Below are positions 4,523 through 53,712 of a stretch of 64,000 nt of DNA, piece after piece; positions within the stretch are counted from its first letter, which is position 1, and each line of letters opens with the position of its first letter. Source of the DNA: a virus (lineage: Duplodnaviria; Heunggongvirae; Uroviricota; Caudoviricetes); IMG/VR virus record IMGVR_UViG_3300020426_000391. One strand, 5' to 3'. A program made the translations under genes and the position numbers. The notes under the pieces were generated by a model. The model ran no database searches and had not been told where the DNA came from. It saw only the letters and a list, made by a program, of their open reading frames with translations.

Positions 4523-4825
4523 TCAGGATTGCGTTTCCTCTTCCTCGTGGATCTCGACATCATACATGAACATGTTGATGATCCAGTCCGCTCCCTCGGG
4601 GTTGTGCATCTCCGCCGCGGTTAGCATGAGACAGGGGAATCGTTCGGGATCCTCGTCCCAGAGCTTCTGGTTCGGGATCGGTCTATCGTTGCCCTGCCAG
4701 GCGTAGCTGCGGCCCTTGAGGCTCTCTTGGTATTCGTCGAGTTCCTCGCGGTTCCGGAAGAGGACCGGGTTGCGGTAGCCGCCGATGGTGGCGGCGATGC
4801 GGGCGTCGTTGTCGAGGTATTGCAT
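4523..4825 (-). CDS. hypothetical protein
   Basis: Track ORF 4523..4867; plausible start MQYLDNDARI. Confidence 0.4.
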   Translation of the reverse strand: MQYLDNDARIAATIGGYRNPVLFRNREELDEYQESLKGRSYAWQGNDRPIPNQKLWDEDPERFPCLMLTAAEMHNPEGADWIINMFMYDVEIHEEEETQS

Positions 4826-4962
4826 GTGCGTATTCCTTGGTGCGGCCTCATCGGCCGTAGATCTCAAGGCACGCGGATCTTTCTGCTTCAGTCCACGTGC
4901 CGCTCAGGCGGGGGTGCGGCTGAAGCCATTTAGTCGAGAATTCATTTTTCCATCCTTCATGA

Positions 4963-6243: not shown

Positions 6244-7233
6244 TCAGGCTGCGATCTGTGAGAGGTGGCGGGGGAGGACGATCTCCGAGATCATCTTCTC
6301 GATCTCTTCATCTTCCGGCTTGGGCGGTAGCACGCTGTCGATCCGGTCGAGTTCGTCGACGAGGCCCTCGAGAAGGGGCTGGATCTCCGGATAGGCGAAC
6401 TTGCCGAGCTTGATGGCGAGCAGTTCCTCGGCATCGGGACGCGGAAAGGTGATGCTGCCCGTGAGCATGAGCTCGTGCGCCTGACGCGCGACGCGCACCG
6501 CGTGGCTGACGGCCTTCCAGTCGACCCCGTTGCTATCCTTGGCCTTGCGCGCCCGGTCACCGTAGTTCTTCCAGACGGCGCCGTAGATCTTGGAGGCCTC
6601 CTCCAGGTCGTTGCGCATCGAGACCTTGCGGTCGCAGCACTCGATGTGGAGCATGTCCGGCGTATGTCCCGAGGAGAGGACGATCATGTTCGCCATCTCG
6701 ACGCGCTCGGTGAACGCGCGGAGATCGTCCTCGATCACCTCCAGCCGGGTCTTGGGGCCGTGCTTCTCCTTGGCTTCGGCCAGAAGGACGACGAGCTTCT
6801 CGACCGCTTCCATGCGGCTGCCCTTGACGCCGTATTTCGCGGCCTGCTGCTTGCAGTATCCGACGAAGCCCTTGCAATCCGCATTGAGCAGTGTGCGTGC
6901 CTCGGCGCGCAGTGTCTCCCATTCCGGTGCGGCCTCGACGATGCAGTCGTCGGGAGCGAACAGGATCTCGGTCGCGACGCCGTCGCCCAGCGCCAGCATG
7001 CGGCAGAACTTCTCCACCGAGTAGGACTGGTGGTCCACGGCGTCACCTGTGTTCTTGCCGGCCGCGTTCTTCGCCTTGATCGATTCGTCGAACACGTTCT
7101 CGGGACGCTGGAGGAGGATGCCCCTGCCGCTGGGAAGATGGACACCCTTGTAATCCTCGTCCGAAGATGGCGTGCTCGTGCCGTACAGGTGCGAACCGTG
7201 AACGGTGGTGACGAGCTTTCGGAGCGGCTTCAT
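6244..7233 (-). CDS. Pol-beta superfamily nucleotidyltransferase (about 330 aa) with a C-terminal helical domain
   Basis: hG[GS]-x10-D-x-[DE] motif VHGSHLYGTSTPSSDEDY; further acidic residues at GDAVDH and FAPDDC. Likely start MKPLRKL at residue 32 of track ORF 6244..7326, directly after the upstream stop. Confidence 0.6.
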   Translation of the reverse strand: MKPLRKLVTTVHGSHLYGTSTPSSDEDYKGVHLPSGRGILLQRPENVFDESIKAKNAAGKNTGDAVDHQSYSVEKFCRMLALGDGVATEILFAPDDCIVEAAPEWETLRAEARTLLNADCKGFVGYCKQQAAKYGVKGSRMEAVEKLVVLLAEAKEKHGPKTRLEVIEDDLRAFTERVEMANMIVLSSGHTPDMLHIECCDRKVSMRNDLEEASKIYGAVWKNYGDRARKAKDSNGVDWKAVSHAVRVARQAHELMLTGSITFPRPDAEELLAIKLGKFAYPEIQPLLEGLVDELDRIDSVLPPKPEDEEIEKMISEIVLPRHLSQIAA

Positions 7234-7460
7234 ACGTAGACCCTGCGTGCTTCGCGTGCCGCGTGCTCGGCGCGTGCACGGGCCATGGTGGCCGACGCGC
7301 TCTCGGCTCGTTTCTTCAGCGCGCACGAGACGTGCTGCGTGAAGATGGCGGTGTAGTCCGAAGGCTTGCCGCCGAACTTGCGAGCTCGTTCCGCGGCCGA
7401 GGGGACGAGCTTGATGGGCTTGCTGCAGATCGTGCAGTGACCCTTGGGCGTCTTGCTCAT
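7230..7460 (-). CDS. hypothetical small basic protein, possibly Zn-binding (C-x2-C ... H-x3-C)
   Basis: Internal start MSKTPKGHCTICSKPIKLVP... in track ORF 7230..7706. Its stop overlaps the NTase start. Confidence 0.45.
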   Translation of the reverse strand: MSKTPKGHCTICSKPIKLVPSAAERARKFGGKPSDYTAIFTQHVSCALKKRAESASATMARARAEHAAREARRVYV

Positions 7461-7928: not shown

Positions 7929-8333
7929 TTATCCGACCGTGGTGTAGACCGGTATGGAGAGCTGGTGCACGACGCAGAACTCGCCGCGATCCTCTGCGGC
8001 CGTAACCGTCGCATCCTTGTCCGGGACGTTGGGGCAGTAGACCGGCTGGTCCTCCTCGCCCTCGCATCCCATGAGGACGAGGTATTCGGTGTTGATGTCG
8101 ACCGGCTCGTCCGCGAAGTCCTCGATCATCGAGAAGTCCTCGATGTCGTCTTCGAGGATCGGCTGGAGGAGGTACTTGCCCTCCAGATCCATCTCGGCGA
8201 GCTTCGCCATGACCGCGCCTGCGGCGGCGAGGGTCAGGACCTCGAAGCTGGCGAAGTCGACGGGGCAGGTTCCATCGCCCTGGATGTTGTTACCGTTCTC
8301 GTCCGCGAGCTGGTATCCGATCAACTTGGCCAT
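7929..8333 (-). CDS. hypothetical acidic protein
   Basis: Track ORF with coherent GC3-rich codon usage. Confidence 0.45.
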   Translation of the reverse strand: MAKLIGYQLADENGNNIQGDGTCPVDFASFEVLTLAAAGAVMAKLAEMDLEGKYLLQPILEDDIEDFSMIEDFADEPVDINTEYLVLMGCEGEEDQPVYCPNVPDKDATVTAAEDRGEFCVVHQLSIPVYTTVG

Positions 8334-40151: not shown

Positions 40152-40241
40152 GGGTAGTCAAAGCCATACTGGATTTGCGCAACCGGACTGTAAATCCGGT
40201 CCTCGAAAGAGGGGGAGGTTCGATTCCTCGGCTGCCCACCA
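40152..40241 (+). tRNA. tRNA-Tyr-like, anticodon GUA, type II with an aberrant D-arm (possible pseudo-tRNA)
   Basis: Acceptor GGGUAGU/GCUGCCC with two G-U pairs, A73, CCA. Anticodon arm CCGGA CUGUAAA UCCGG, variable hairpin CCUCGAAAGAGG, T-loop UUCGAUU. Confidence 0.4.
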
Positions 40242-40277
40242 AGTTTAGGAGAATGAGTATCGGATGCATGCAATGAC

Positions 40278-40360
40278 GCGAGAGTGGCGGAACCGGTAGA
40301 CGCGCCCGCTTTAAGCCCGGGTGTCCTCGTGGCGTGGGGGTTCGAGTCCCTCCTCTCGCA
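40278..40360 (+). tRNA. tRNA-Leu (anticodon UAA), no CCA encoded
   Basis: GCGAGAG UG GCG GAACCGGUAGA CGC. Anticodon loop UUUAAGC with G37, long variable arm, T-arm GGGGG UUCGAGU CCCUC, acceptor 3' CUCUCGC-A. Confidence 0.7.
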
Positions 40361-40379
40361 TCATTGCCGATAACGGATC

Positions 40380-40465
40380 GCGGAGTTGGCGGAACTGGTA
40401 GACGTCCCTGCTTCAAACCCAGGCGCTCCGGATGGAGCGTGAGAGTTCGAATCTCTCACTCCGCA
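40380..40465 (+). tRNA. tRNA-Leu (anticodon CAA)
   Basis: GCGGAGU UG GCG GAACUGGUAGA CGU. Loop UUCAAAC, variable hairpin GCUCC GGAU GGAGC, T-arm GAGAG UUCGAAU CUCUC. Confidence 0.75.
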
Positions 40466-40492
40466 CCGGTCGTCCTTTCGATTTATGAGATT

Positions 40493-40581
40493 GCCCGATT
40501 GGCGAAGCTGGTAGACGCGCTGGATTCAGGATCCAGTGTCCCGTGAGGGACGTGCAGGTTCGAAGCCTGCATCGGGCACCA
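40493..40581 (+). tRNA. tRNA-Leu (anticodon CAG), CCA encoded
   Basis: GCCCGAU UG GCG AAGCUGGUAGA CGC. Anticodon stem-loop CUGGA UUCAGGA UCCAG, T-arm GCAGG UUCGAAG CCUGC, AUCGGGC-A-CCA. Confidence 0.8.
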
Positions 40582-40599
40582 ATATACAGGACGGTTCAA

Positions 40600-40686
40600 G
40601 CGACCGTGGCGAAGCTGGTAGACGCGCGACGTTGAGGTCGTCGTGGGAGAGATCCCGGGGAGGTTCGAATCCTCTCGGTCGCACCA
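40600..40686 (+). tRNA. tRNA-Leu (anticodon GAG), CCA encoded
   Basis: GCGACCG UG GCG AAGCUGGUAGA CGC. Anticodon stem-loop CGACG UUGAGGU CGUCG, T-arm GGAGG UUCGAAU CCUCU, CGGUCGC-A-CCA. Confidence 0.8.
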
Positions 40687-40696
40687 ACCGTCCTGA

Positions 40697-40770
40697 TGCT
40701 CCTTCGGCTAATGGTAAGCCGCCTGACTCTGAATCAGGAAATCGGGGTTCGACCCCCTGGGGAGCATCCA
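40697..40770 (+). tRNA. tRNA-Gln (anticodon CUG), CCA encoded
   Basis: UGCUCCU UC GGC UAAUGGUAA GCC. Anticodon stem-loop CCUGA CUCUGAA UCAGG, T-arm CGGGG UUCGACC CCCUG, GGGAGCA-U-CCA. U1-A72 is typical of Gln. Confidence 0.75.
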
Positions 40771-43483: not shown

Positions 43484-43561
43484 TGGCGCGCCCTAGTGGA
43501 CTCGAACCACTGACCTACGGTTTAGAAGACCGTTGCTACTATCCAGCTGAGCTAAGAGCGC
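43484..43561 (-). tRNA. tRNA-Arg (anticodon UCU), CCA encoded
   Basis: RC GCGCUCUUAGCUCAGCUGGAUAGUAGCAACGGUCUUCUAAACCGUAGGUCAGUGGUUCGAGUCCACUAGGGCGCGCCA. Confidence 0.75.
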
Positions 43562-43571
43562 GTTCCGGCCG

Positions 43572-43862
43572 TCATGCGGCCTTGGGAATATCTTTCTCGA
43601 CGACGCCTGTCACGGTCACGGCTTCTCGGCCGGTCCAGCGCATCGTGAGGGTCAGCGCGTCGCCGTCGTTAGCCTGCGCCTCGAGGAGGGCCTTCGCGTT
43701 CTTCCCCTGCGCGATCAGGGAGACCATTCGGCTCTCCTTCTTGAGCTGGACGTTCATCACGCCCTTGGCCATCGGGTTGGCATCCGTCCCGTCCTTCTTG
43801 AGATACTGGATCGTCACCTTGTTGGTGCTCTCGGGGCCCTTCTTGCCCTTGGTGTAACGCAT
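43572..43862 (-). CDS. hypothetical small basic protein (96 aa)
   Basis: Track ORF. Confidence 0.4.
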   Translation of the reverse strand: MRYTKGKKGPESTNKVTIQYLKKDGTDANPMAKGVMNVQLKKESRMVSLIAQGKNAKALLEAQANDGDALTLTMRWTGREAVTVTGVVEKDIPKAA

Positions 43863-43874
43863 GTCTTTTTCCCT

Positions 43875-44051
43875 TCAGACCAGGATGTTCAGTATCTGCC
43901 CGCTACCCCCGGAGATCGGCCGTGTGACGATCGGATCGTCCCTCAGCTTCGCCTGACGGGCCATGCCCTCGTCGATGACCTTCGCGCGTGCACGGCTGAG
44001 CGCCTGCACATTGGCGTACGCCTGGGTGGTATAGTCTCCGAACAGTGCCAT
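43875..44051 (-). CDS. possible small protein (58 aa), below the track cut-off
   Basis: My translation: MALFGDYTTQAYANVQALSRARAKVIDEGMARQAKLRDDPIVTRPISGGSGQILNILV. Confidence 0.25.
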   Translation of the reverse strand: MALFGDYTTQAYANVQALSRARAKVIDEGMARQAKLRDDPIVTRPISGGSGQILNILV

Positions 44052-44075
44052 GACTGATCTCCTGGTGGATGAAGA

Positions 44076-44152
44076 TGGTGCGCTCGACAGGATTCGAACC
44101 TGTGGCCTCCGGATTAGGAATCCGATGCTCTATCCGACTGAGCTACGAGCGC
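44076..44152 (-). tRNA. tRNA-Arg (anticodon CCU), copy 2, CCA encoded
   Basis: Same cloverleaf as copy 1 with 3 substitutions (cctccgg vs cccccgg; ccgactg vs ccagctg). Confidence 0.85.
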
Positions 44153-44185
44153 GTGCGAGAGATTTTTCCTCTCTCGAATTCTGAT

Positions 44186-44446
44186 TCAGGTCCTCGGACC
44201 CCTGTCGGAAGGTCTGAAGTGCGTGGGTCTGTAATGCCGTGGGATCGGCTCTGATCCATGTCGCGTCCACGGCGAGCGCCAGGCCTTCTTGCCCTCGTCG
44301 AAATAGCAATCAGGTACGCGATACTCGTCACGCGGGAGGCCGGAAGCGGATGTGCGCACGATCCACAGGTCCACCCGCGAGGAGCGTCCGTCCCTGGGCG
44401 CCTCGGAGATATCCCGCCAATCGTCGTGCACCGCTTCCTGCGTCAT
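44186..44446 (-). CDS. hypothetical small protein (86 aa)
   Basis: Track ORF. Confidence 0.35.
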   Translation of the reverse strand: MTQEAVHDDWRDISEAPRDGRSSRVDLWIVRTSASGLPRDEYRVPDCYFDEGKKAWRSPWTRHGSEPIPRHYRPTHFRPSDRGPRT

Positions 44447-44467
44447 CGTCCTTCTCGGTTTTTTCGA

Positions 44468-44553
44468 ATGGAGGCCCAGACAGGATTTGAACCTGCGTTC
44501 CTTTCGGAAACCATGGATTTGCAGTCCAGTACCTTACCGCTCGGTCACCGGGC
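44468..44553 (-). tRNA. atypical type II (long variable arm) tRNA with anticodon GCA and discriminator U73, CCA encoded
   Basis: RC GGCCCGG UG ACC GAGCGGUAA GGU A CUGGA CUGCAAA UCCAU GGUUUCCGAAAGGAAC GCAGG UUCAAAU CCUGU CUGGGCC U CCA. Confidence 0.6.
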
Positions 44554-44599
44554 CCCTTCGATGCGACCTTGTAGGATGAGGTCGCGAATTGTCAAATGC

Positions 44600-45250
44600 C
44601 TACCAGCGTTCTCCGCAGATGAACGCCATGTTCCCGGCTTGCGGACGGATCATGAGATTGCGTTCCGCCATGATCTCGAGCCCCCAGGTCTTCTCCTCCA
44701 GGCCGGGAACGCGCTGGACGCGCAGCTTCAGGCCGAGTTCCGGCACCTCGATGATCTCGGTGGGGATGAGCTTGCCCTTGAAGGGGCCATGCTGCCGCCA
44801 TACGACGAACTCCTCGGGCTCGCCCTGCGGTTCGCCGAAGGCCTTCTCGGCCTGCTTGATTGCGCTGTCACGGGACTTCTCGGCAGAGGCGATCCGGTCT
44901 GCCGCCCACTTGGGCAGACGCTTCATACGCCTTTCCTCCAGTTCCGCGGCGTCCAGCCTGGCATCGGGCACGTCCGGTCCTTCGATGTCGAGGTTCTGCG
45001 CGGCGTCTTCGAGAACGGTCTTCAGATCGAATCCGTCGATCGCGTCGATGAGCTCCTCGAGCGCTCCGTGGTCCATGGCCATGATCTGTCCGTTGTCGCC
45101 TTCACGCGCTCCATCGCTCATGTTGTCGAGCGATTCGCCGAGATCGTCGCGGATGCCACGCAGGTCGTCGAGAGCGGCCTCCATGGTCGTTCGCGCTGCC
45201 GCGATCGCTTCGAGAGCCTTCTTCGCCTTCGCGCTGCGCTGCTTGTTCAT
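44600..45250 (-). CDS. hypothetical protein (about 216 aa)
   Basis: Internal start MNKQRSAKAKK; ATGA overlap with the upstream gene. Confidence 0.4.
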   Translation of the reverse strand: MNKQRSAKAKKALEAIAAARTTMEAALDDLRGIRDDLGESLDNMSDGAREGDNGQIMAMDHGALEELIDAIDGFDLKTVLEDAAQNLDIEGPDVPDARLDAAELEERRMKRLPKWAADRIASAEKSRDSAIKQAEKAFGEPQGEPEEFVVWRQHGPFKGKLIPTEIIEVPELGLKLRVQRVPGLEEKTWGLEIMAERNLMIRPQAGNMAFICGERW

Positions 45251-45645
45251 GTCTGCTTCTCCCTGTCCCTCATTCGGGTTCCGCGCGTGATGGCGTTCGA
45301 ATCCGTCTTGCTCATCGGCCCCATGATGGCGCATGTCTGTGTCGGGCCGGCAAAGACCGTCCTGCCCTGGTCCCGCACGATCTCGACGTGGACGCCACGT
45401 TTGCGCGCTCTCTCGACGACCTTGGCCAGATGGTCTTCATCATCTACCTCGATGCATATCTTCGGTTGCCCGTCGGCGAGATACTGGTTGACGAGAAGCG
45501 GCTTGTCGATGGCGAGGCGGACGCCCGCCGAGAAGGCCGCATGTGCTGCCTGGACCTCGGACTTGCCTCTGGTCATCTCGTCGAGGTCGCCGCGGAACGC
45601 GAGCACCATCCTCATTTCCGCGTGGTTCTCCGCTTTCTTGTCCAT
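45247..45645 (-). CDS. peptidyl-tRNA hydrolase, PTH2 family
   Basis: RMVLAFRGDLDEMTRGKSEVQAAHAA, GQPKICIEVDDEDHL and DQGRTVFAGPTQTCAIMGP align block by block with archaeal/eukaryotic Pth2. Confidence 0.7.
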   Translation of the reverse strand: MDKKAENHAEMRMVLAFRGDLDEMTRGKSEVQAAHAAFSAGVRLAIDKPLLVNQYLADGQPKICIEVDDEDHLAKVVERARKRGVHVEIVRDQGRTVFAGPTQTCAIMGPMSKTDSNAITRGTRMRDREKQT

Positions 45646-46091
45646 CAGGCCGCCTGCTTCCGTGCTGCACCCCAGGGCTCGGGTTCGAGATTGTGGACCT
45701 CGACGCCGTAGAGGACGGCCTGGAAGAGCGCGATCCTGTCCTGCTTCCGCAGGAGATTGAAGCGTTTGGCCAGATATGTCGCCGTGAGGAACAGCCGGAA
45801 GAATTCGTCGCTCTGGGTGGTGATGAGGTTTATCTCGCCCTTGCGCCAGGAACGGAAGCCACCGGCGTCGTTTCCCGTGTAGAATTCGGGTGAACCCTCT
45901 TGGCTGAAACCAGCCTCCTGAAGTTTTTCGACTGGAACTTCTCGAACCAGCACCAGCCAGTCTTCGTCGGTATCCGTTGGCGCCGGATCACAGGTCACCC
46001 TGCTGCCGACCGGTTCCGCGTTGGCCAGCACGTCCGCGAGAGCCTCTGCGATCGTCTCGGGCAGCTTGGGGTTGACCGTCTTTTCCATCAC
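45645..46091 (-). CDS. hypothetical protein (148 aa)
   Basis: Track ORF immediately downstream of serS. Confidence 0.4.
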   Translation of the reverse strand: MMEKTVNPKLPETIAEALADVLANAEPVGSRVTCDPAPTDTDEDWLVLVREVPVEKLQEAGFSQEGSPEFYTGNDAGGFRSWRKGEINLITTQSDEFFRLFLTATYLAKRFNLLRKQDRIALFQAVLYGVEVHNLEPEPWGAARKQAA

Positions 46092-46100
46092 CTTCTCCTC

Positions 46101-47366
46101 TCAGCCAATTGCTTCCCTGTTTCCCATGTAGGGTCGCAGGGCCTCGGGGATGGCGACGCGTCCGTCTTCGAGAAGATTGTTCTCGATGATCGCGACAAGA
46201 GCGCGTCCCACGGCGAGCCCGCTCCCGTTGAGGGTGTGCACATGACGCGTCTGGCCGTCCTCTCCACGATAGCGGGCGTTCATGCGCCGCCCCTGGAAGT
46301 CGCCGCACCAGCTGATGCTGGCGATCTCGCGGTAGGCGTTCTGTCCCGGCATCCAGACCTCGATGTCGTAGGTCCGGCGCGCCGCGAATCCCATGTCGCC
46401 TGCACACAGCAGGACGACGCGGTAGGGCAGTTCGAGCCTGTCGAGGATCCGGCAGGCGTCGGCTAGCATCCTGTCGTGTTCCGCCTGCGCGTCCTCTTCG
46501 CGGCAGATCGTCACCAGCTCGACCTTCTCGAACTGGTGCTGCCGGATGTATCCGCGCGTATCCCGGCCGGCGGCGCCTGCCTCGGCGCGGAAGCACTGAG
46601 TCAGCGCCGTCAGTCGCATGGGCCTCTCGAGATCTACGATCTGTTCTCGCACGAGATTGGTGAGGCCCACCTCGGCGGTCGGGATGAGCCACCGGTCATC
46701 GGCGGTCACGAACAGGTCCTCTTCGAACTTCGGGAGTTGCCCGGTGCCTTCGAGGACTTCACGTTTCACCAAGAGCGGGATCGCCGTCTCCTGGTAACCG
46801 GCCTCGTCCGTCTGGATGTCGAGCATGAACTGGCCGAGTGCGCGCTGGAGTCGCGCCATCTGGCCGCGCAGCACTGTGTTGCGTGTGCCGGCGAGGAGCG
46901 TGCCCGCCTCGAAGTCCATGCCGAGTTCGGGGCCGAAGTCGGCATGGTGCCTGCCGGCCTCGCCGGGATCTCCTCGGCGGGCGATCTCGACATTGTCGTT
47001 TTCGTCCGCGCCGTCAGGCACATCCTCGGCCGGAATGTTGGGTAGATTGAGGAGATGTTGGTGCTGCTGTGCGGGGATGTCGTCCTGCTTCAGGTCGTAT
47101 GCGGCGATCCAGTCCTTTGCTTCCGTCACTTCCCCCTTGAGGCGCTCGGCCTTTTCGGTGTCGCCGGCCTTCATCGCCTCGCCGATCTGCCTGCTCTTGG
47201 CGTTGCGCTCGGCGAGGCGCTTCTGCTTCTCAGTCTCGTTGTCACGCAGGGCCCGGTCGAGGACGAGCAGTCGCTTGACCTGCTCTCCGGCGTCGGGAAC
47301 GCCCCGACGCGTCAATCCGTCGACATATGTCTGCGGATCGGCCCGCATTGCCTTGATGTCGTGCAT
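46101..47366 (-). CDS. serS: seryl-tRNA synthetase
   Basis: Full-length class II SerRS, including TGQLPKFEEDLF, CFRAEAGAAGRDTRGYIRQHQFEKVE, GDMGFAARRTYDIEVWMPGQNAYREIAS and HTLNGSGLAVGRALVAIIEN. Near-colinear with E. coli SerS. Confidence 0.95.
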   Translation of the reverse strand: MHDIKAMRADPQTYVDGLTRRGVPDAGEQVKRLLVLDRALRDNETEKQKRLAERNAKSRQIGEAMKAGDTEKAERLKGEVTEAKDWIAAYDLKQDDIPAQQHQHLLNLPNIPAEDVPDGADENDNVEIARRGDPGEAGRHHADFGPELGMDFEAGTLLAGTRNTVLRGQMARLQRALGQFMLDIQTDEAGYQETAIPLLVKREVLEGTGQLPKFEEDLFVTADDRWLIPTAEVGLTNLVREQIVDLERPMRLTALTQCFRAEAGAAGRDTRGYIRQHQFEKVELVTICREEDAQAEHDRMLADACRILDRLELPYRVVLLCAGDMGFAARRTYDIEVWMPGQNAYREIASISWCGDFQGRRMNARYRGEDGQTRHVHTLNGSGLAVGRALVAIIENNLLEDGRVAIPEALRPYMGNREAIG

Positions 47367-47378
47367 GGGATTTTCCTT

Positions 47379-47903
47379 TCAGATTCCCTGTTTCATGGCC
47401 GCCAGGGTCAGTCTGTCGACTCCCACGGCCCAGCCGCATCCGTTCTCGTAGCTTCCGCCGCCGGCGATCTGCTTCTGCGCACCGAGTGCTTCCACCCGGG
47501 CCTCGAAGCCGTTGCGCGAGTAGTAGGAGAGACCGCGCACGGCGTCTCCGTCGATGTCGCATTCGACGCCTGTCGCCTTCAGGGCGCTGACGAGCAGGTC
47601 GCGGCATTCGTCTTCGTAGTAACCGGGCCCTAGGACTTCGATCCCGAACTGGGTGAATTCGCGGTAGCGCCCGGCCTGCGGCCGCTCGTAGCGATAGCAG
47701 CGCTGCTCGTAGAAGACCCGGATCGGCTTCGGGAGCGACTTGCCCCAGCGTTCGCGGTATTCGCGCTGCAGGAGTGCGGTTGCCTCGGGAATGAGCGTGC
47801 AGGGGCGCCCGCCCTTGTCGTCGAAGGTCCACATCTGTCCTTCGATCTCGCGTCCCGACCGGTCGTACCATACGTCCGGTTCGGCGATCGCGGGGAGGAT
47901 CAC
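47379..47903 (-). CDS. HisRS-like class II aaRS catalytic-core fragment (about 174 aa); lacks the insertion and anticodon-binding domains and has a non-ATG (GTG) start
   Basis: Motif 1 region MWTFDDKGGRPCTLIPEATA, motif 2 YRYERPQAGRYREFTQFG, HisA-like RGLSYYSRNGFE, motif 3 GGGSYENGCGWAVGVDRL. The upstream in-frame sequence runs into a TAG without an ATG. Confidence 0.55.
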   Translation of the reverse strand: MILPAIAEPDVWYDRSGREIEGQMWTFDDKGGRPCTLIPEATALLQREYRERWGKSLPKPIRVFYEQRCYRYERPQAGRYREFTQFGIEVLGPGYYEDECRDLLVSALKATGVECDIDGDAVRGLSYYSRNGFEARVEALGAQKQIAGGGSYENGCGWAVGVDRLTLAAMKQGI

Positions 47904-48024
47904 CTCCGAGAAGCCTTCATTGATGAACCGACCTCCGGAGAGAATCGACGGTGCTGCGGAAGACGGCCGCTTCGCGGCCCTGGATGATGCGAGTGCCCTT
48001 GAGCATGATGATGTTCCTTCTGTC

Positions 48025-48246
48025 CTATCGCCTTGCGCCGCGCGCAGGCCTGTATTCGATGCGGCAGCGACTGCCTATCGGCATGATGCACTTGTCGCCG
48101 CTTCCGGTGTTTCCGATGAGGATGGGCTCCTGACCCGCGTCCTCCATGGCCTTGGCCGCCTTGCGGAGATGTTCGAGTGCGGCTTCGAACCGCAGACGTG
48201 CTGCCGTGCCCTTGGGGCCCAGGCGTCCTGCTTCATGGATGTTCAT
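48025..48246 (-). CDS. possible small protein (73 aa)
   Basis: Track ORF; not assignable. Confidence 0.25.
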   Translation of the reverse strand: MNIHEAGRLGPKGTAARLRFEAALEHLRKAAKAMEDAGQEPILIGNTGSGDKCIMPIGSRCRIEYRPARGARR

Positions 48247-48476
48247 GAGTCTGTCTCCAGGAATGTGCCGCGTTCGTGATAGCGGACGCCGGCATTGCCC
48301 TGCATGCGGATCTCGCCGCGGTCCATGGGGCCGGTCCAGCCGGATACCACCGGCTCGATGCCGAGTGCATTTAGAGCGAGGGTACAGCGGTCGACCTCGG
48401 CCATGGCGGCCTCGAATTTCGCGCGGGCTTCCGCGACGCGCGGATCCCGTGCAGACTTGTCTTCGATATCGAACAT
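48243..48476 (-). CDS. possible small protein (about 77 aa) downstream of tRNA-Gly
   Basis: C-terminal part of track ORF 48243..48674 (the N-terminal part overlaps the tRNA). Start MFDIEDKSARD. Confidence 0.3.
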   Translation of the reverse strand: MFDIEDKSARDPRVAEARAKFEAAMAEVDRCTLALNALGIEPVVSGWTGPMDRGEIRMQGNAGVRYHERGTFLETDS

Positions 48477-48494
48477 TCTCTTGTCCTTGTGAGT

Positions 48495-48568
48495 TGGAGC
48501 GGACGACCGGATTCGAACCGGCATTCTCAGCTTGGAAGGCTGATGCTCTACCATTGAACTACGTCCGC
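48495..48568 (-). tRNA. tRNA-Gly (anticodon UCC), CCA encoded
   Basis: RC GCGGACGUAGUUCAAUGGUAGAGCAUCAGCCUUCCAAGCUGAGAAUGCCGGUUCGAAUCCGGUCGUCCGCUCCA. Confidence 0.85.
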
Positions 48569-48655
48569 CTCTGGCCCTTCCGTCATCGGAAAGGCCCATT
48601 GGTCTCTTGGAAGGGCGTTTTTCCCTTCTCGGATATTTCTTGTCTCTCCGCCCCC

Positions 48656-49201
48656 TCAGGGGCGCTTTCCCCATCCGTGGAGGATGTTCTCGATCTCCTC
48701 GCGAGGGCTTTCCTGGAGGATGATCTCGATGCTGTTGTTGGCGCCGTTCCCGGCGATCGTGTGATGAGACATCGCAAGGCCTTCGAAGTAGGGGACATCC
48801 ACCACTTCGCGGATCGGCCTGCCATCGGTGATCTGACCCGTGAGGCTCTCCGGCACGTCGTCCAGGCGCACGAGTTCGCTCTGCGCGCTCATCTTCCTGC
48901 AGGAGACGCGTCCCTGGAGTATCATTCTGCGTTCGAAATCGCCCTCCTCGAGTTCCATGAACGTGAGCGAGAGTGATAGCGTGAATCCGTCTTCACCGGA
49001 TCCCCGGAGGACCTGGAGCTTGACCCAGTCCTGGTCCGCTTCGGCGATCTGCTCGCTGGCGTTGTTGATGGCGCGCACCAGGCTCGTGCGGTGCTCTACG
49101 GGAAGTCCCTTCATGATGGCACGGGCGAGATGATCGGTGAGGATGGGGATGTAGTTGTCGTTGCCTTCCGGAAGACCGATGTCGTAGGCGATCATTCCCA
49201 T
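48656..49201 (-). CDS. hypothetical protein, paralog D1
   Basis: MGMIAYDIGLPEG ... VVDVPYFEGL parallels D2. Confidence 0.45.
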   Translation of the reverse strand: MGMIAYDIGLPEGNDNYIPILTDHLARAIMKGLPVEHRTSLVRAINNASEQIAEADQDWVKLQVLRGSGEDGFTLSLSLTFMELEEGDFERRMILQGRVSCRKMSAQSELVRLDDVPESLTGQITDGRPIREVVDVPYFEGLAMSHHTIAGNGANNSIEIILQESPREEIENILHGWGKRP

Positions 49202-49725
49202 CCCTCCATGACATCCTGCCAGACGAGCGGCTCCCACCTCCCGAGAGAGGCGAGGAGATTGTTCTCCGTGATCTTGGTCGTTTCGATGACGCGCCCCTCG
49301 AACAGAGGGAAGTCGACTATCTCGGTGATGGCCTGTCCTTCGATGCCTCTTGCGATGAGAGCCTCCGGAAGACCGGAGAACAGCACGCTGTTGGCGCTGA
49401 TCATAACGCCGGCCGAATACATCTCGACTGTTCCCTCGATGAGGGCCCCGTCGAGGTTCCCGTGCTCATCCTCGGTGTCGCGTATGGTGCATTCGATCGA
49501 CATGCCCTCACCATCGTCTGCGGCAAGGATTCGGATGGGGGCGTTCGAGCCGTTTCCATACTGGTCGTTGCACCGGTCGTAGGCGAGGCAGATGCCGCGT
49601 ATCACGCTTGGCACGAGCTCATCAGGGATCCGATCGAAGAGCATCCTGGCGACGGCGTCGATCTTGAGCAGCTCCCAGTCCGGTTCTAGTTCCTTGGGAG
49701 GGCCGATGTCGTAGGTCATGCCCAT
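49192..49725 (-). CDS. hypothetical protein, paralog D2
   Basis: MGMTYDIGPPKE ... IVDFPLFEGR. Confidence 0.45.
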   Translation of the reverse strand: MGMTYDIGPPKELEPDWELLKIDAVARMLFDRIPDELVPSVIRGICLAYDRCNDQYGNGSNAPIRILAADDGEGMSIECTIRDTEDEHGNLDGALIEGTVEMYSAGVMISANSVLFSGLPEALIARGIEGQAITEIVDFPLFEGRVIETTKITENNLLASLGRWEPLVWQDVMEGWE

Positions 49726-49753
49726 GTTCCGTTTTTTCCTTCGGTGTTCTTCG

Positions 49754-50278
49754 TCAGAATGGCTCTGCGATATGAGGAAGACCGGCGACGCTCGGCGACG
49801 TGCTCAGTCTCAGACGGGTGATCTCGCCCGCGATCTGGATGCCTTCGATGTGCCGTTCCCCGAGAATGTCGATATCCACATGTTCCTTCAGGAGGCCTCC
49901 GATCGCGATACCATTGCTCCAGGTCAGGGGCATTCCCATCAGGGTTAGTCCCGCCTCGTGGATGACCCATCCCCTGTCCTTGTCCTCGATCTCTCCCGTC
50001 AGCCTGTATGTCCCGCTGGGCTCGTCTCCATGGAGGAGAAGCGTCACACGCCTTCCCGATTGCCAGCCGCGCGCGATCGTCTCGAGCGTCTGCCAGCAGT
50101 GCCGAGTGGCGAGGTCCTCGTATTTCAAGCGTATCGTCCTCACCAGCGTGGCCCTGTCCTCGATCGCTATGCGTGACATTATCTCGGAGGCGACGCGCAT
50201 GGTCCTGTAGATGCTCTCGTCGAAGGGGCGGACGGGTTCGGCGCCTATGTCGAGGCCGTCGCGGATGCTAGATGGCAT
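49754..50278 (-). CDS. hypothetical protein
   Basis: Internal start MPSSIRDGLDIG. Confidence 0.4.
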   Translation of the reverse strand: MPSSIRDGLDIGAEPVRPFDESIYRTMRVASEIMSRIAIEDRATLVRTIRLKYEDLATRHCWQTLETIARGWQSGRRVTLLLHGDEPSGTYRLTGEIEDKDRGWVIHEAGLTLMGMPLTWSNGIAIGGLLKEHVDIDILGERHIEGIQIAGEITRLRLSTSPSVAGLPHIAEPF

Positions 50279-52680: not shown

Positions 52681-53712
52681 TCAGCCGATCGCCCGCGAGT
52701 TGATCCCGAACTGGCAGAGCAGTCCGGTCTCCAGCCATTCCAGCATGAAGTCGACTCCGGAGTTTGAGCTCATCCGCTTCATCAGCTGATGCCCGCTGCC
52801 GCTGTCTCCCGGGACTATCGGCACACCCGAATCCTCGCTCCATGTGAAGGTGAGAATGCCCTCCTTCTCCTGGCATTCGATCCTGACCGTTCCCTGGTCC
52901 TCGGAGAGGGCTCCGTATTTGAGGGCATTGGTCGAGAGTTCGCCGAAGATGAGGGCCATGGTCGCCAGGGCCTGTGGCCCTACGGTCGCCTCCGGCATCC
53001 CGGAGATAGTCACCTGCCTGCTTCTGCCCGTGGCCGCCAGGATGGACTGGATGGCCTCGTTCAATTCCACCGGCTGGTTGTCCCGTGCCGAGAGGATGTC
53101 CTGTGAGGTCGAGAGGCTCATCATCCGTCGGTTGAAGGATTCCATGAAGCCCTTGGTGTCATTGTGATCTCTGGCGGTCATGGCGGCCAGAGATCTGATC
53201 GCGGTGATCTGGTTCTTCAGGCGATGCCGCATCTCCCGTGAGATGAGGTCCCGCTCCTCCGCGGTGTTCCTCGCCTCCTCGAGCATGGCCTGGGACTGCA
53301 TCTGCTCGTTCCGGATGCGCGTTATGTCGCGTGACACGGCGAGGGCGCCGCTGACGCCCTTCTCGTCTTCGATGCTGGTCACGGTCACATCCCACCATGC
53401 ATCCTGACCGTTGCGCGGTCGATACGCCTCGAAGCGGTGCCGCCTCCCGTCGAGCGCCTCCTCGAGTCCGATCTGGACACTGGTCCGCGCCGTCTCGGGC
53501 CATTGCATGACCCAGCCTTCGTCCGTCTCCTCCTGGTCTCCGCAAGGGTTAGCATCGGAGGAGTTGGTGGCGATGACCCGCCCGTCCATGCCGATGATCT
53601 CCACGCAGTCACTGCTGCGCATCAGGGCTTCTTCTATTCTGTTCATTCTTTTCCGTCCGGATTCACTTGCTTTATGGATAACCAGCGTCGGGTCGTTCTG
53701 CAATCGTGTCAT
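52681..53712 (-). CDS. PAS-domain HWE-family sensor histidine kinase
   Basis: H-box HRLKNQ (HRxKN) typical of HWE/HisKA_2 kinases, ATPase block ELSTNALKYGA, N-terminal PAS-like region. Convergent with the receiver gene. Confidence 0.75.
   Translation of the reverse strand: MTRLQNDPTLVIHKASESGRKRMNRIEEALMRSSDCVEIIGMDGRVIATNSSDANPCGDQEETDEGWVMQWPETARTSVQIGLEEALDGRRHRFEAYRPRNGQDAWWDVTVTSIEDEKGVSGALAVSRDITRIRNEQMQSQAMLEEARNTAEERDLISREMRHRLKNQITAIRSLAAMTARDHNDTKGFMESFNRRMMSLSTSQDILSARDNQPVELNEAIQSILAATGRSRQVTISGMPEATVGPQALATMALIFGELSTNALKYGALSEDQGTVRIECQEKEGILTFTWSEDSGVPIVPGDSGSGHQLMKRMSSNSGVDFMLEWLETGLLCQFGINSRAIG

Follow-up and report, generated by a model that had tools for sequence, protein, structure and literature searches.

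The bacterial gene prfB, which encodes release factor 2 (RF2), is expressed through a +1 frameshift at a CUU_U site (UUU in a minority of genes), where the A-site UGA is codon 26 of E. coli RF2 and a 5' Shine-Dalgarno (SD) sequence, GG_GGG or GG_AGG, acts as a stimulator (PMC5009743). Under the hungry-codon principle, a CUU tRNA in the P site slips by +1 more readily when the sense codon that comes next is decoded slowly, and the natural extent of such frameshifting is unclear (PMC5009743). The cases of hungry-codon frameshifting with which we compare our own, those of Gallant and of Ty1 (CUU_AGG_C), are either experimental or depend on a rare tRNA in yeast retrotransposons. Sense-codon variants of the RF2 site were reportedly used by Curran and Yarus to measure rates of aminoacyl-tRNA selection and, to our knowledge, few bacterial chromosomal genes besides prfB are known to use +1 programmed frameshifting. 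Here, we describe a gene in which a prfB-like cassette is built around a sense histidine codon. The gene lies in a 64,000-nucleotide stretch of DNA (hereafter, the window) from a virus of the Caudoviricetes (IMG/VR record IMGVR_UViG_3300020426_000391), and it encodes a protein that resembles histidyl-tRNA synthetase (HisRS) at about half the length, which we call mini-HisRS.

At the level of the protein, the closest described systems are HisRS itself, its paralog HisZ, and the engineered HisRS urzymes. A 2022 review of aminoacyl-tRNA synthetase (aaRS) paralogs gives HisZ as the only one for HisRS. The urzymes (Li, Weinreb, Francklyn, Carter 2011) are laboratory excerpts of 119-145 amino acids (aa) that contain a minimal active site with motifs 1 and 2, without the insertion and anticodon-binding domains, in variants with or without an N-terminal extension and motif 3; histidine activation is reported for them (PMC3060492). 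In the searchable literature, whose coverage leaves out subscription-only papers, we found no description of mini-HisRS or of the frameshift in its family. The recoding review of Atkins (2016) holds no mention of 'histidyl', and the sole entry of this kind in GeneTack (2013) is a generic +1 cluster, 'tRNA synthetase', assigned there to phase variation.

A conserved frame break at a histidine codon

The mini-HisRS gene occupies 48006..47379 on the minus strand, and the seryl-tRNA synthetase (SerRS) gene serS (47366..46101) lies downstream of it on the same strand after a gap of 12 nt (47378..47367), as read from the list of open reading frames (ORFs) and the raw sequence. A preliminary description of the window had this order the wrong way round, with the HisRS-like gene following serS by 13 nt. 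It had correctly reported an ORF of 174 aa with a GTG start at 47903 (47379..47903, minus strand), in which we found both of the motif strings that it quoted, YRYERPQAGRYREF and GGGSYENGCGWAVGVDRL, and which matches the Pfam family tRNA-synt_His at 4.6e-14. Its remark that no in-frame ATG stands upstream of this GTG is literally true, but what was inferred from it is wrong, as the N-terminus is encoded one frame off. Upstream of the GTG, the frame of the body continues as ...FINEGFSEVILP, which is homologous to the relatives, and the HisRS N-terminus, MLKGTRIIQGREAAVFRSTVDSLRRSV (the RGTR motif and the motif-1 helix, 27 codons), starts at ATG 48006, one base out of register with the body.

The upstream frame, ORF1 (47917..48006, minus strand; zero frame, or frame A), encodes MLKGTRIIQGREAAVFRSTVDSLRRSVHQ*, is 29 codons long, and stops at TGA 47919..47917; codons 1-27 of this HisRS N-terminus enter the product. 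A ribosome-binding site (RBS), AAGGAA, can be read from the sequence at 48014..48019 on the minus strand, 7 nt 5' of the true ATG, and the ATG and the region upstream of it are conserved in two close relatives (loci L004 and L005, with 93% and 88% aa identity, respectively). ORF1 is homologous to HisRS and to the N-termini of unshifted homologs (P0003, P0012, and P0057), and metagenome gene callers annotate it as a 29-aa ORF. The body, ORF2 (47379..47924, minus strand; +1 frame, or frame B), encodes INEGFSEVILP...AAMKQGI*; the 174-aa ORF is nested inside it. ORF2 holds the motif 1 strand, motif 2, HisA, HisB, and motif 3, and it gives the Pfam, NCBIfam, and PDB matches. The site in the window is CGGAGGUCGGUUCAUCAAUGA, and the junction between the two frames reads CGG AGG TCG GTT CAT CAA TGA (47937..47917). 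Within it, an SD-like CGGAGG (47932..47937, minus strand) and a 3-nt spacer, TCG, precede the proposed +1 shift site GTT CAT (47923..47928, minus strand), with Val GUU in the P site and His CAU in the A site, and the zero-frame codons CAA and TGA come next.

This frame break recurs throughout the family. L004 and L005 align gap-free through the junction and therefore share it, and it is also present in the closest cultured relative, Sinorhizobium phage Phosso (469 kb, 55% identity). An IMG/VR scan found 51 loci with relatives, and all 28 of those whose tblastn match starts at query residue 19-31 have the same split arrangement. Among bacterial genomes the break was found at 62 of 80 loci; the other 18 are unshifted, cut by a contig end, or ordinary archaeal HisRS, apart from one detector miss (L065) and one unclear case (L109). 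All shifted genes examined (27 phage and 62 bacterial loci) have NTT followed by CAY at their junction, and the consensus of the shifted genes is [C/A]GG-[A/G]GN-NNN-[C/G/T]TT-CA[T/C]; the Pseudomonas site is CGGAGCUAUCUUCAUCGA. The shift codon of the 62 bacterial genes is CTT in 55, GTT in six, and TTT in one (Ca. Pseudomonas adelgestsugas), and their His codon is CAT in 56 and CAC in six. Phages use CTT or GTT, always with C next. Positions -9 to -5 are C-G-G-A-G in 70-82 of 92 distinct sites, although the detector did not impose SD-like bases.

Unshifted homologs have no SD-like element, and their conserved Arg is encoded by CGT or another codon. At the TTC position they have V, C, L, or T and never F, so that TTC in the shifted genes reads as part of a slippery NTT-C and not as a Phe codon. 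Since the frame-B stop abuts TTC in L012 and L018, and since a zero-frame stop follows within 0-3 codons after CAY in most genes, any change of frame is confined to NTT-CAY.

The cassette was found at three positions of the protein, namely at codon ~25 in the majority, at codon ~16 in L033, L037, and L042, and at codon ~72 in L045 (IMGVR_UViG_3300036766_000988, 8190-8225), where CAG GTG TGT CTT CAT CCC TGA lies inside the conserved CLIPEATA core motif. At each of these positions, the conceptual protein aligns colinearly with its unshifted relatives and retains an [L/V][I/T] dipeptide. In a rough neighbor-joining tree, the codon-16 group and the codon-25 clade fall in different halves, and three unshifted genes are nested within the latter. 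The three positions belong to separate parts of the tree, and the cassette was acquired independently at three or more gene positions. About 100 distinct phage and bacterial genes, with guanine-plus-cytosine (GC) contents of 37-64%, carry the cassette, and none of these genes shows a second disruption. Three independent marine assemblies contain identical DNA, so the break does not stem from assembly. Transcriptional slippage was considered and rejected, as there is no homopolymer at the site.

Ratios of nonsynonymous to synonymous substitution (dN/dS, or omega) were estimated for 14 pairs by the method of Nei and Gojobori. The N-terminal segment gave an omega of 0.12-0.59 in frame A, with dN>dS when read in frame B, and the body gave an omega of 0.02-0.13 in frame B, with dN>>dS when read in frame A. 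These values indicate purifying selection on both segments, each in its own frame only. Among 102 distinct genes, no ATG, GTG, or TTG is conserved in frame B (at most 16% have one at any given position), and 35 of the 102 have none from the last frame-B stop to codon +12. The GTG of the body in the window is GTA in L005. Since no frame-B start codon is conserved, a separately initiated body appears unlikely from these comparisons.

The resemblance to prfB extends to a short ORF1 of ~25 codons (the His codon is codon 28 in the window), a main product in the +1 frame, a CUU_N-type shift codon with UUU in the minority (GTT C in the window), and, precisely 3 nt before that codon, an SD-like GGAGG or GGGGG. 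The prfB site is AGG GGG UAU CUU UGA, with the same register between the SD sequence and the shift codon as in mini-HisRS. In prfB, decoding of the A-site codon depends on the gene's own product, and by analogy we propose the same for mini-HisRS. However, the A-site codon of mini-HisRS is a sense His codon, CAY, at all sites and not UGA. The mini-HisRS genes also use GUU, have a zero-frame stop 0-3 codons later in most cases, carry the cassette at no fewer than three gene positions, and encode an aaRS-like enzyme. Compared with the experimental and Ty1 cases of hungry-codon frameshifting, the hungry codon here is cognate to the encoded synthetase-like enzyme, and since it is, feedback is implied.

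In the mechanism that we propose, ribosomes would initiate at ATG 48006 and translate 27 codons, which would bring GUU into the P site and His CAU into the A site with the SD-like GGAGG 3 nt behind. The peptidyl-tRNA would then slip from GUU (CUU in most relatives) to UUC, and reading in the +1 frame would run to the end of the enzyme. Normal decoding of CAU would lead instead to termination two codons later and to a 29-aa peptide. Slippage would compete with the delivery of His-tRNAHis to the A site, so that the share of enzyme would go up when charged tRNAHis is scarce and down when it is plentiful. The result would be negative feedback, in which low His-tRNAHis causes a pause at CAY, the pause a +1 slip, and the slip more enzyme. 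We infer the slippage, its efficiency, and its response to histidine from the recurrent cassette and by analogy with prfB. On balance, we lean towards the joint proposal that the 208-aa core is made by +1 programmed frameshifting, that its synthesis is raised by scarce His-tRNAHis, and that it charges tRNAHis.

Architecture of mini-HisRS and distribution of its family

The reconstructed product of mini-HisRS is a conceptual protein of 208 aa, compared with ~420 aa for HisRS. The alignment of the 174-aa ORF to T. thermophilus (Tt) HisRS covers only residues 61-155 and 245-315 (~45-155 and 245-315 in pairwise alignments to solved HisRS structures), and because only the segments to 155 and 245-315 align, mini-HisRS is without the insertion domain and the C-terminal anticodon-binding domain, a double loss that the preliminary description had recognized. 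The insertion domain between motif 2 and HisA is missing in that the query skips Tt residues 155 to 245 (the Foldseek alignment runs to 316 columns for the 208-aa query). The anticodon-binding domain PF03129 gave no match to the protein, which stops ~10 residues past motif 3. Mini-HisRS shares with the HisRS of E. coli (1KMM) and T. thermophilus (1ADJ/4RDX) the class II core, motifs 1-3, HisA (RGLxYY), HisB (GGGxY), and the residues for histidine, ATP, and the acceptor end, with TM scores of 0.86-0.91 across the whole mini protein. It differs from them in having no ~90-aa insertion domain, no 11-residue loop ahead of motif 3, and no part of the anticodon-binding domain, and in its expression by a proposed frameshift.

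Class II motifs 1, 2, and 3 were found in a seven-stranded antiparallel core (1adj/4rdx alignments, family alignments, and the AlphaFold2 (AF2) model). The histidine pocket, comprising RGL.YY (HisA), GGG.Y (HisB), E74, T76, Q119, E123, R157, Y161/162, and Y186, is invariant (alignments A2 and A3). In family alignments of 22 and 50 members, the invariant columns are those of the HisRS active site, namely E83, T85, R113, Q118, R121, R123, Q127, E131, R259, Y263/264, Y288, and R311, and the equivalents of E115 and R116 are at least 90% conserved. Residue equivalences were set by alignment to E. coli/T. thermophilus numbering and from established knowledge.

The AF2 model of the 208-aa fusion has a predicted local distance difference test (pLDDT) score of 94.4 and a predicted TM (pTM) score of 0.90, and in this confident single-chain model the ORF1 part packs as helix 11-28. 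Structure prediction followed by a Foldseek search was the check that the preliminary description had proposed, and it returned HisRS as the best match (1adj, query TM score (TMq) 0.91; 4rdx, TMq 0.90; E 1e-17), with HisZ matches lower (TMq 0.80-0.86, 15-17% identity). Mini-HisRS scores 147 bits against NCBIfam hisS (TIGR00442), below the equivalog cut-off of 286.75, and 78.6 bits against hisZ (TIGR00443), below the cut-off of 271.65; the hisZ models match at E 4e-22. Each model is only half represented in the protein, which explains why both scores fall short of the cut-off. No PHROGs family matches mini-HisRS; phrog_4806 ('histidyl tRNA synthetase', a 190-position profile) matches the SerRS of the window weakly (6e-10) and not mini-HisRS. 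By sequence and model, mini-HisRS appears HisRS-like in fold and chemistry, but it falls outside HisRS in its domain architecture and on the model cut-off.

Despite the name given by NCBI to its Pseudomonas homologs, mini-HisRS is not HisZ. The two are alike in that HisZ is also a HisRS paralog without the anticodon-binding domain. However, HisZ is ~300-400 aa long, keeps the insertion region, and has HisG as its partner, whereas mini-HisRS has 208 aa. Unlike HisZ, which is without adenylation activity (PMC9437257), the mini-HisRS family has invariant candidate adenylation residues (the motif 2 Arg, the equivalent of R259, and the motif 3 Arg). Compared with the HisRS urzymes, mini-HisRS is natural, selected, and ~208 aa long, and it also has the HisA and HisB strands. 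The preliminary description had offered, as one of two readings, a minimized class II core with an unknown substrate. The minimized core is supported; the second part is overly cautious, given that the histidine pocket, the ATP arginines, and the acceptor-end loop are kept and that the gene is linked to tRNA-His.

A database protein search gave 1914 matches at E<=0.001, of which the best 120 are all 137-269 aa long (E 1e-105 to 1e-53); several of these 120 relatives sit on contigs of 215-545 kb. Many of the IMG/VR loci are on contigs of 250-608 kb. In GTDB genomes (one per species), at least 552 stretches encode relatives. The bacterial carriers include Pseudomonas (the fluorescens, syringae, and corrugata groups, and the reduced endosymbiont Ca. 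P. adelgestsugas), Paraburkholderia, Burkholderia, Trinickia, Chromobacterium, Collimonas, Rhodospirillaceae, Azospirillum, Thalassospira, Myxococcota, and Vicinamibacterales. Reconstructed genes of the family encode 196-236 aa, the size being uniformly near 200-215 aa, and no version of ~400 aa was found among the relatives compared.

The other reading of the preliminary description, a degraded paralog of HisRS or HisZ, is contradicted by this family of short cores with a dN/dS of 0.02-0.13 and conserved catalytic residues. An intact gene of ~400 aa in relatives, broken by frameshifts in the window, would have spoken for simple decay; instead, no such gene was found, and the frameshift that is present is conserved and under selection. 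Mini-HisRS therefore belongs to a conserved family of HisRS cores in huge phages and many bacterial chromosomes and is not degraded.

In public annotation, NCBI names the bacterial homologs 'ATP phosphoribosyltransferase regulatory subunit' and JGI names them 'histidyl-tRNA synthetase', as ORFs of 170-190 aa with arbitrary starts; examples are L104 3028-3540 (Pseudomonas fluorescens CP185740) and the cluster of WP_017136957.1, WP_026013702.1, and others. The out-of-frame N-terminal 27 codons of these homologs are unannotated.

Association with tRNAHis and alternative explanations

In phages, mini-HisRS genes are embedded in tRNA arrays. The nearest tRNA is tRNA-His at 14 of 42 loci, where tRNA-His accounts for 6% of all tRNAs (P=8e-8; P=1e-6 without duplicates), and tRNA-His often lies within 12-60 nt of the mini-HisRS gene. 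The adjoining tRNAHis genes have the canonical bacterial identity set, in that they encode both G-1 and C73. Since tRNAHis identity rests mainly on the acceptor-stem pair G-1:C73, HisRS is among the synthetases likeliest to tolerate loss of the anticodon-binding domain. In the structure of T. thermophilus HisRS with tRNAHis, the acceptor end is held by Glu114, Arg115, Gln117, Arg120, and Arg122 of the motif-2 loop, and single mutants of insertion-domain contacts keep half to full activity (PMC4357726). The same acceptor-end residues (E114, R115, Q117, R120, and R122), which hold C74 to A76, are conserved in the mini-HisRS family. In our proposal, mini-HisRS would activate histidine and charge tRNAHis by acceptor-stem recognition of G-1:C73 alone, and in phages its substrate would be the canonical tRNAHis that the phage itself encodes.

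A second tRNAHis, without G-1 and with G1-U72 and A73 or U73, is present in L015, L020, L022, L024, and L030. Coordinates of the two kinds are 6991-7066 vs 8549-8623 in L015, 8704-8776 vs 8546-8621 in L020, 7287-7360 vs 8585-8660 in L022, and 7264-7339 vs 6351-6425 in L024, with 7387-7462 in L030. The kind without G-1 and with G1-U72 is the type reported for an alphaproteobacterial clade (Wang 2007, Yuan 2011). According to one study, the E. coli HisRS/tRNAHis pair is orthogonal in Caulobacter (PMC3875453). In such hosts, which include Sinorhizobium, the host of Phosso, a canonical phage tRNAHis would need a HisRS of canonical type, and the mini enzyme could supply it. In phages of alphaproteobacteria, where HisRS and tRNAHis are divergent, mini-HisRS and the phage tRNAHis would then act as an orthogonal pair. 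The two kinds of tRNA-His are a hint both at host range and at such a tRNA/synthetase pair.

Several points weigh against the proposal that a frameshifted mini-HisRS charges tRNAHis. We infer each of its elements, the frameshifting, the response to histidine, and the charging of tRNA. Re-pairing from GUU to UUC involves a first-position mismatch and should be weaker than that from CUU, and the SD-like element is weak in L006, L017, and L021. The site detectors demanded [VLIF]-His or NTTCAY, so that the invariance of these bases is partly ascertained; by eye, all shifted loci in the inspected sets show the motif, with L109 alone unclear. CAY could also be constrained in part by a requirement for Ile or Thr in the +1 frame. 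With regard to the enzyme, a catalytic-domain fragment of E. coli HisRS is reportedly far less efficient than the full enzyme, and a protein without the insertion and anticodon-binding domains is expected to bind tRNA more weakly. Tt Glu64, which is reported to be essential for aminoacylation (PMC4357726), is replaced by an invariant Gln in the mini-HisRS family. With regard to context, no tRNA-His was found by ARAGORN in the 64-kb window, and the bacterial chromosomal copies coexist with a normal hisS. When the flanking ORFs of 70 bacterial loci were clustered, no conserved partner gene emerged across genera: no cluster was common to more than 20 of the 70, and the recurrent ones were antisense ORFs or Pseudomonas-specific neighbors.

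Some of these points would fit a product that is a real enzyme, made by a real frameshift, but that does not charge tRNAHis. It might pass histidine to another acceptor, for which SerRS-like amino acid:carrier-protein ligases provide a model, or be a HisZ-like regulator that binds histidine and ATP. The NCBI name on the Pseudomonas body ORFs, the matches to hisZ models, the absence of both accessory domains, the Gln in place of a residue essential for transfer to tRNA, and the hisS already present in carrier bacteria are all consistent with this. We nevertheless consider it unlikely. The hisS model outscores hisZ and the fold is nearer HisRS; the adenylation residues are invariant, whereas HisZ has no adenylation activity; and the motif-2 loop residues for C74 to A76 are conserved. 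In addition, the phage genes sit in tRNA arrays, preferentially beside tRNA-His, and clustering of the ORFs that flank the 70 bacterial loci brought up neither hisG nor a carrier-protein gene as recurrent, a comparison that included no screen aimed at HisG. A His codon as sensor also fits best a product that replenishes His-tRNAHis.

A different account does without ribosomal frameshifting. An ancestral 1-nt insertion would have left ORF1 as a leader or separate peptide, with the body made by internal or coupled re-initiation, perhaps modulated by ribosomes that stall at the His codon. Gene callers do assign a start to the body (GTG in the window, various codons elsewhere), the zero-frame stop close behind the His codon is near a possible restart in most genes, and GGAG stands 7-8 nt before ATC/ATT, where it could in principle be an RBS for a non-canonical start. 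We regard re-initiation as distinctly improbable, however, since it would leave unexplained why frame-B start codons are unconserved, why ORF1 retains HisRS N-terminal sequence under purifying selection and packs as a helix of the single-chain model, and why the cassette occurs at three positions, one of which, the split of CLIPEATA in L045, would cut the catalytic domain. As for a decaying pseudogene, that is, a truncated and frameshifted remnant of hisS or hisZ, or an error of sequencing or assembly, the half length of the protein and a frame break near the 5' end are what might be expected of either. Both are hardly credible in view of the low dN/dS of the body, the lack of any second disruption or of a homopolymer at the site, the identical sequence in three assemblies, and the architecture shared by ~100 genes of widely differing GC content in phages and bacteria, including the reduced Ca. 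Pseudomonas adelgestsugas.

Neighboring genes and biological significance

The serS gene downstream of mini-HisRS (46101..47366, minus strand; 421 aa, ATG start) encodes a canonical SerRS that is full-length, as the preliminary description had stated, and of bacterial type. It scores 442.6 bits against NCBIfam serS (TIGR00414; cut-off 301.65) with profile positions 1-418/418 covered, both Pfam Seryl_tRNA_N (the N-terminal coiled coil) and the class II core tRNA-synt_2b match, and phrog_16140 matches at 4.8e-139. The SerRS of the jumbo phages of Brevundimonas vB_BpoS-Kabachok and Papperlapapp (>340 kb) are likewise full-length and of bacterial type, and they are 46-47% identical to the SerRS of the window, which is thus an ordinary full-length enzyme and another jumbo-phage member. 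A conserved pairing of serS with mini-HisRS was rejected, since a tblastn search of 56 related loci with SerRS matched L005 alone; the adjacency is limited to this relative and the phage of the window (L137-L139 are the same DNA).

Farther downstream on the minus strand are genes for a 147-aa conserved phage protein (45645..46088; phrog_15166, 1.8e-30; gene call from L137) and a PTH2-type peptidyl-tRNA hydrolase (45247..45645; Pfam PF01981, 1.4e-22), and a DUF7239 protein is also encoded downstream of the synthetase genes on the same strand. Mini-HisRS, SerRS, the 147-aa protein, and PTH2 form a translation-support cluster of a marine huge phage. ARAGORN found 12 tRNA genes in the window. The nearest upstream of mini-HisRS is tRNA-Gly(UCC) (48495..48568, minus strand); tRNA-Cys and two tRNA-Arg lie downstream (44554..43484), and a tight array of six (Tyr, four Leu isoacceptors, and Gln; 40152-40770) is on the plus strand, opposite the synthetase cluster.

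An RNA ligase (PF09414; 29568-30686, minus strand) shares the window with PTH2, both synthetase genes, and the tRNAs; together, the ligase and PTH2 beside synthetases and tRNAs look like a toolkit for tRNA repair and rescue. Homologs of PTH2 are likewise found close to mini-HisRS at loci L006-8, L011, and L037. At other phage loci, tRNAs with a CTA anticodon (called tRNA-Pyl by ARAGORN; L015 12379-12535, L021 292-446, L022 13795-13882, and L047 15139-15291) are probably amber suppressors, which suggests TAG recoding in these huge phages. Odd anticodons of 4 or 2 nt were also called by ARAGORN (L011 3462-3544, 'aagg'; L012 4551-4626, 'ctta', and 4789-4863; L016 6185-6257), and these tRNA-like genes could be frameshift-suppressor-like tRNAs or prediction artefacts.

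The huge-phage context suggested by the preliminary description is supported. Three independent marine metagenome assemblies carry the DNA, 100% identical over 5.3 kb, and one of them is a contig of 227,742 bp. A megablast search with 44000-50000 found no near-identical DNA among GenBank phages, and exact 51-mers gave no match in IMG/VR; the marine contigs were reached by way of the SerRS protein. The window has a GC content of 0.60-0.65, and its other proteins include an FtsK-like ATPase, a subtilase, two C5 methylases, the RNA ligase, and an HWE histidine kinase. The last of these, a PAS and HWE-type histidine kinase (52681-53712, minus strand), is the sole hint at a host inside the window; HWE kinases are presumably typical of alphaproteobacteria. 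The source is probably a huge phage whose host is a marine alphaproteobacterium.

We are evenly divided on whether the gene is a natural hungry-codon sensor, that is, a half-size HisRS whose translation requires a ribosomal pause at a His codon in a prfB-like cassette. If it is, extra histidine-charging capacity would be made exactly when His-tRNAHis runs low, in huge phages and from the chromosomes of Pseudomonas, Burkholderiaceae, Chromobacterium, Rhodospirillales, and Myxococcota. Such autoregulation, by recoding at the gene's own cognate codon, would be the first known for an aaRS-family gene, and the candidate would reuse the prfB architecture with a sense codon, so that physiological hungry-codon frameshifting would become directly testable. 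For annotation, hundreds of bacterial genes are at present listed without their N-terminus, as a truncated 'ATP phosphoribosyltransferase regulatory subunit' or 'histidyl-tRNA synthetase'. With respect to synthetase evolution, the protein parallels the HisRS urzymes, which are models of ancestral synthetases; it would be natural proof that a class II core of ~200 aa without both accessory domains is a working synthetase, and it could show how much of the G-1:C73 identity is read by the core alone. In alphaproteobacterial hosts, whose tRNAHis is without G-1, mini-HisRS could act as part of an orthogonal tRNA/synthetase pair. For phage biology, the proposal would connect the large tRNA arrays that huge phages carry with a dedicated charging enzyme under feedback control.

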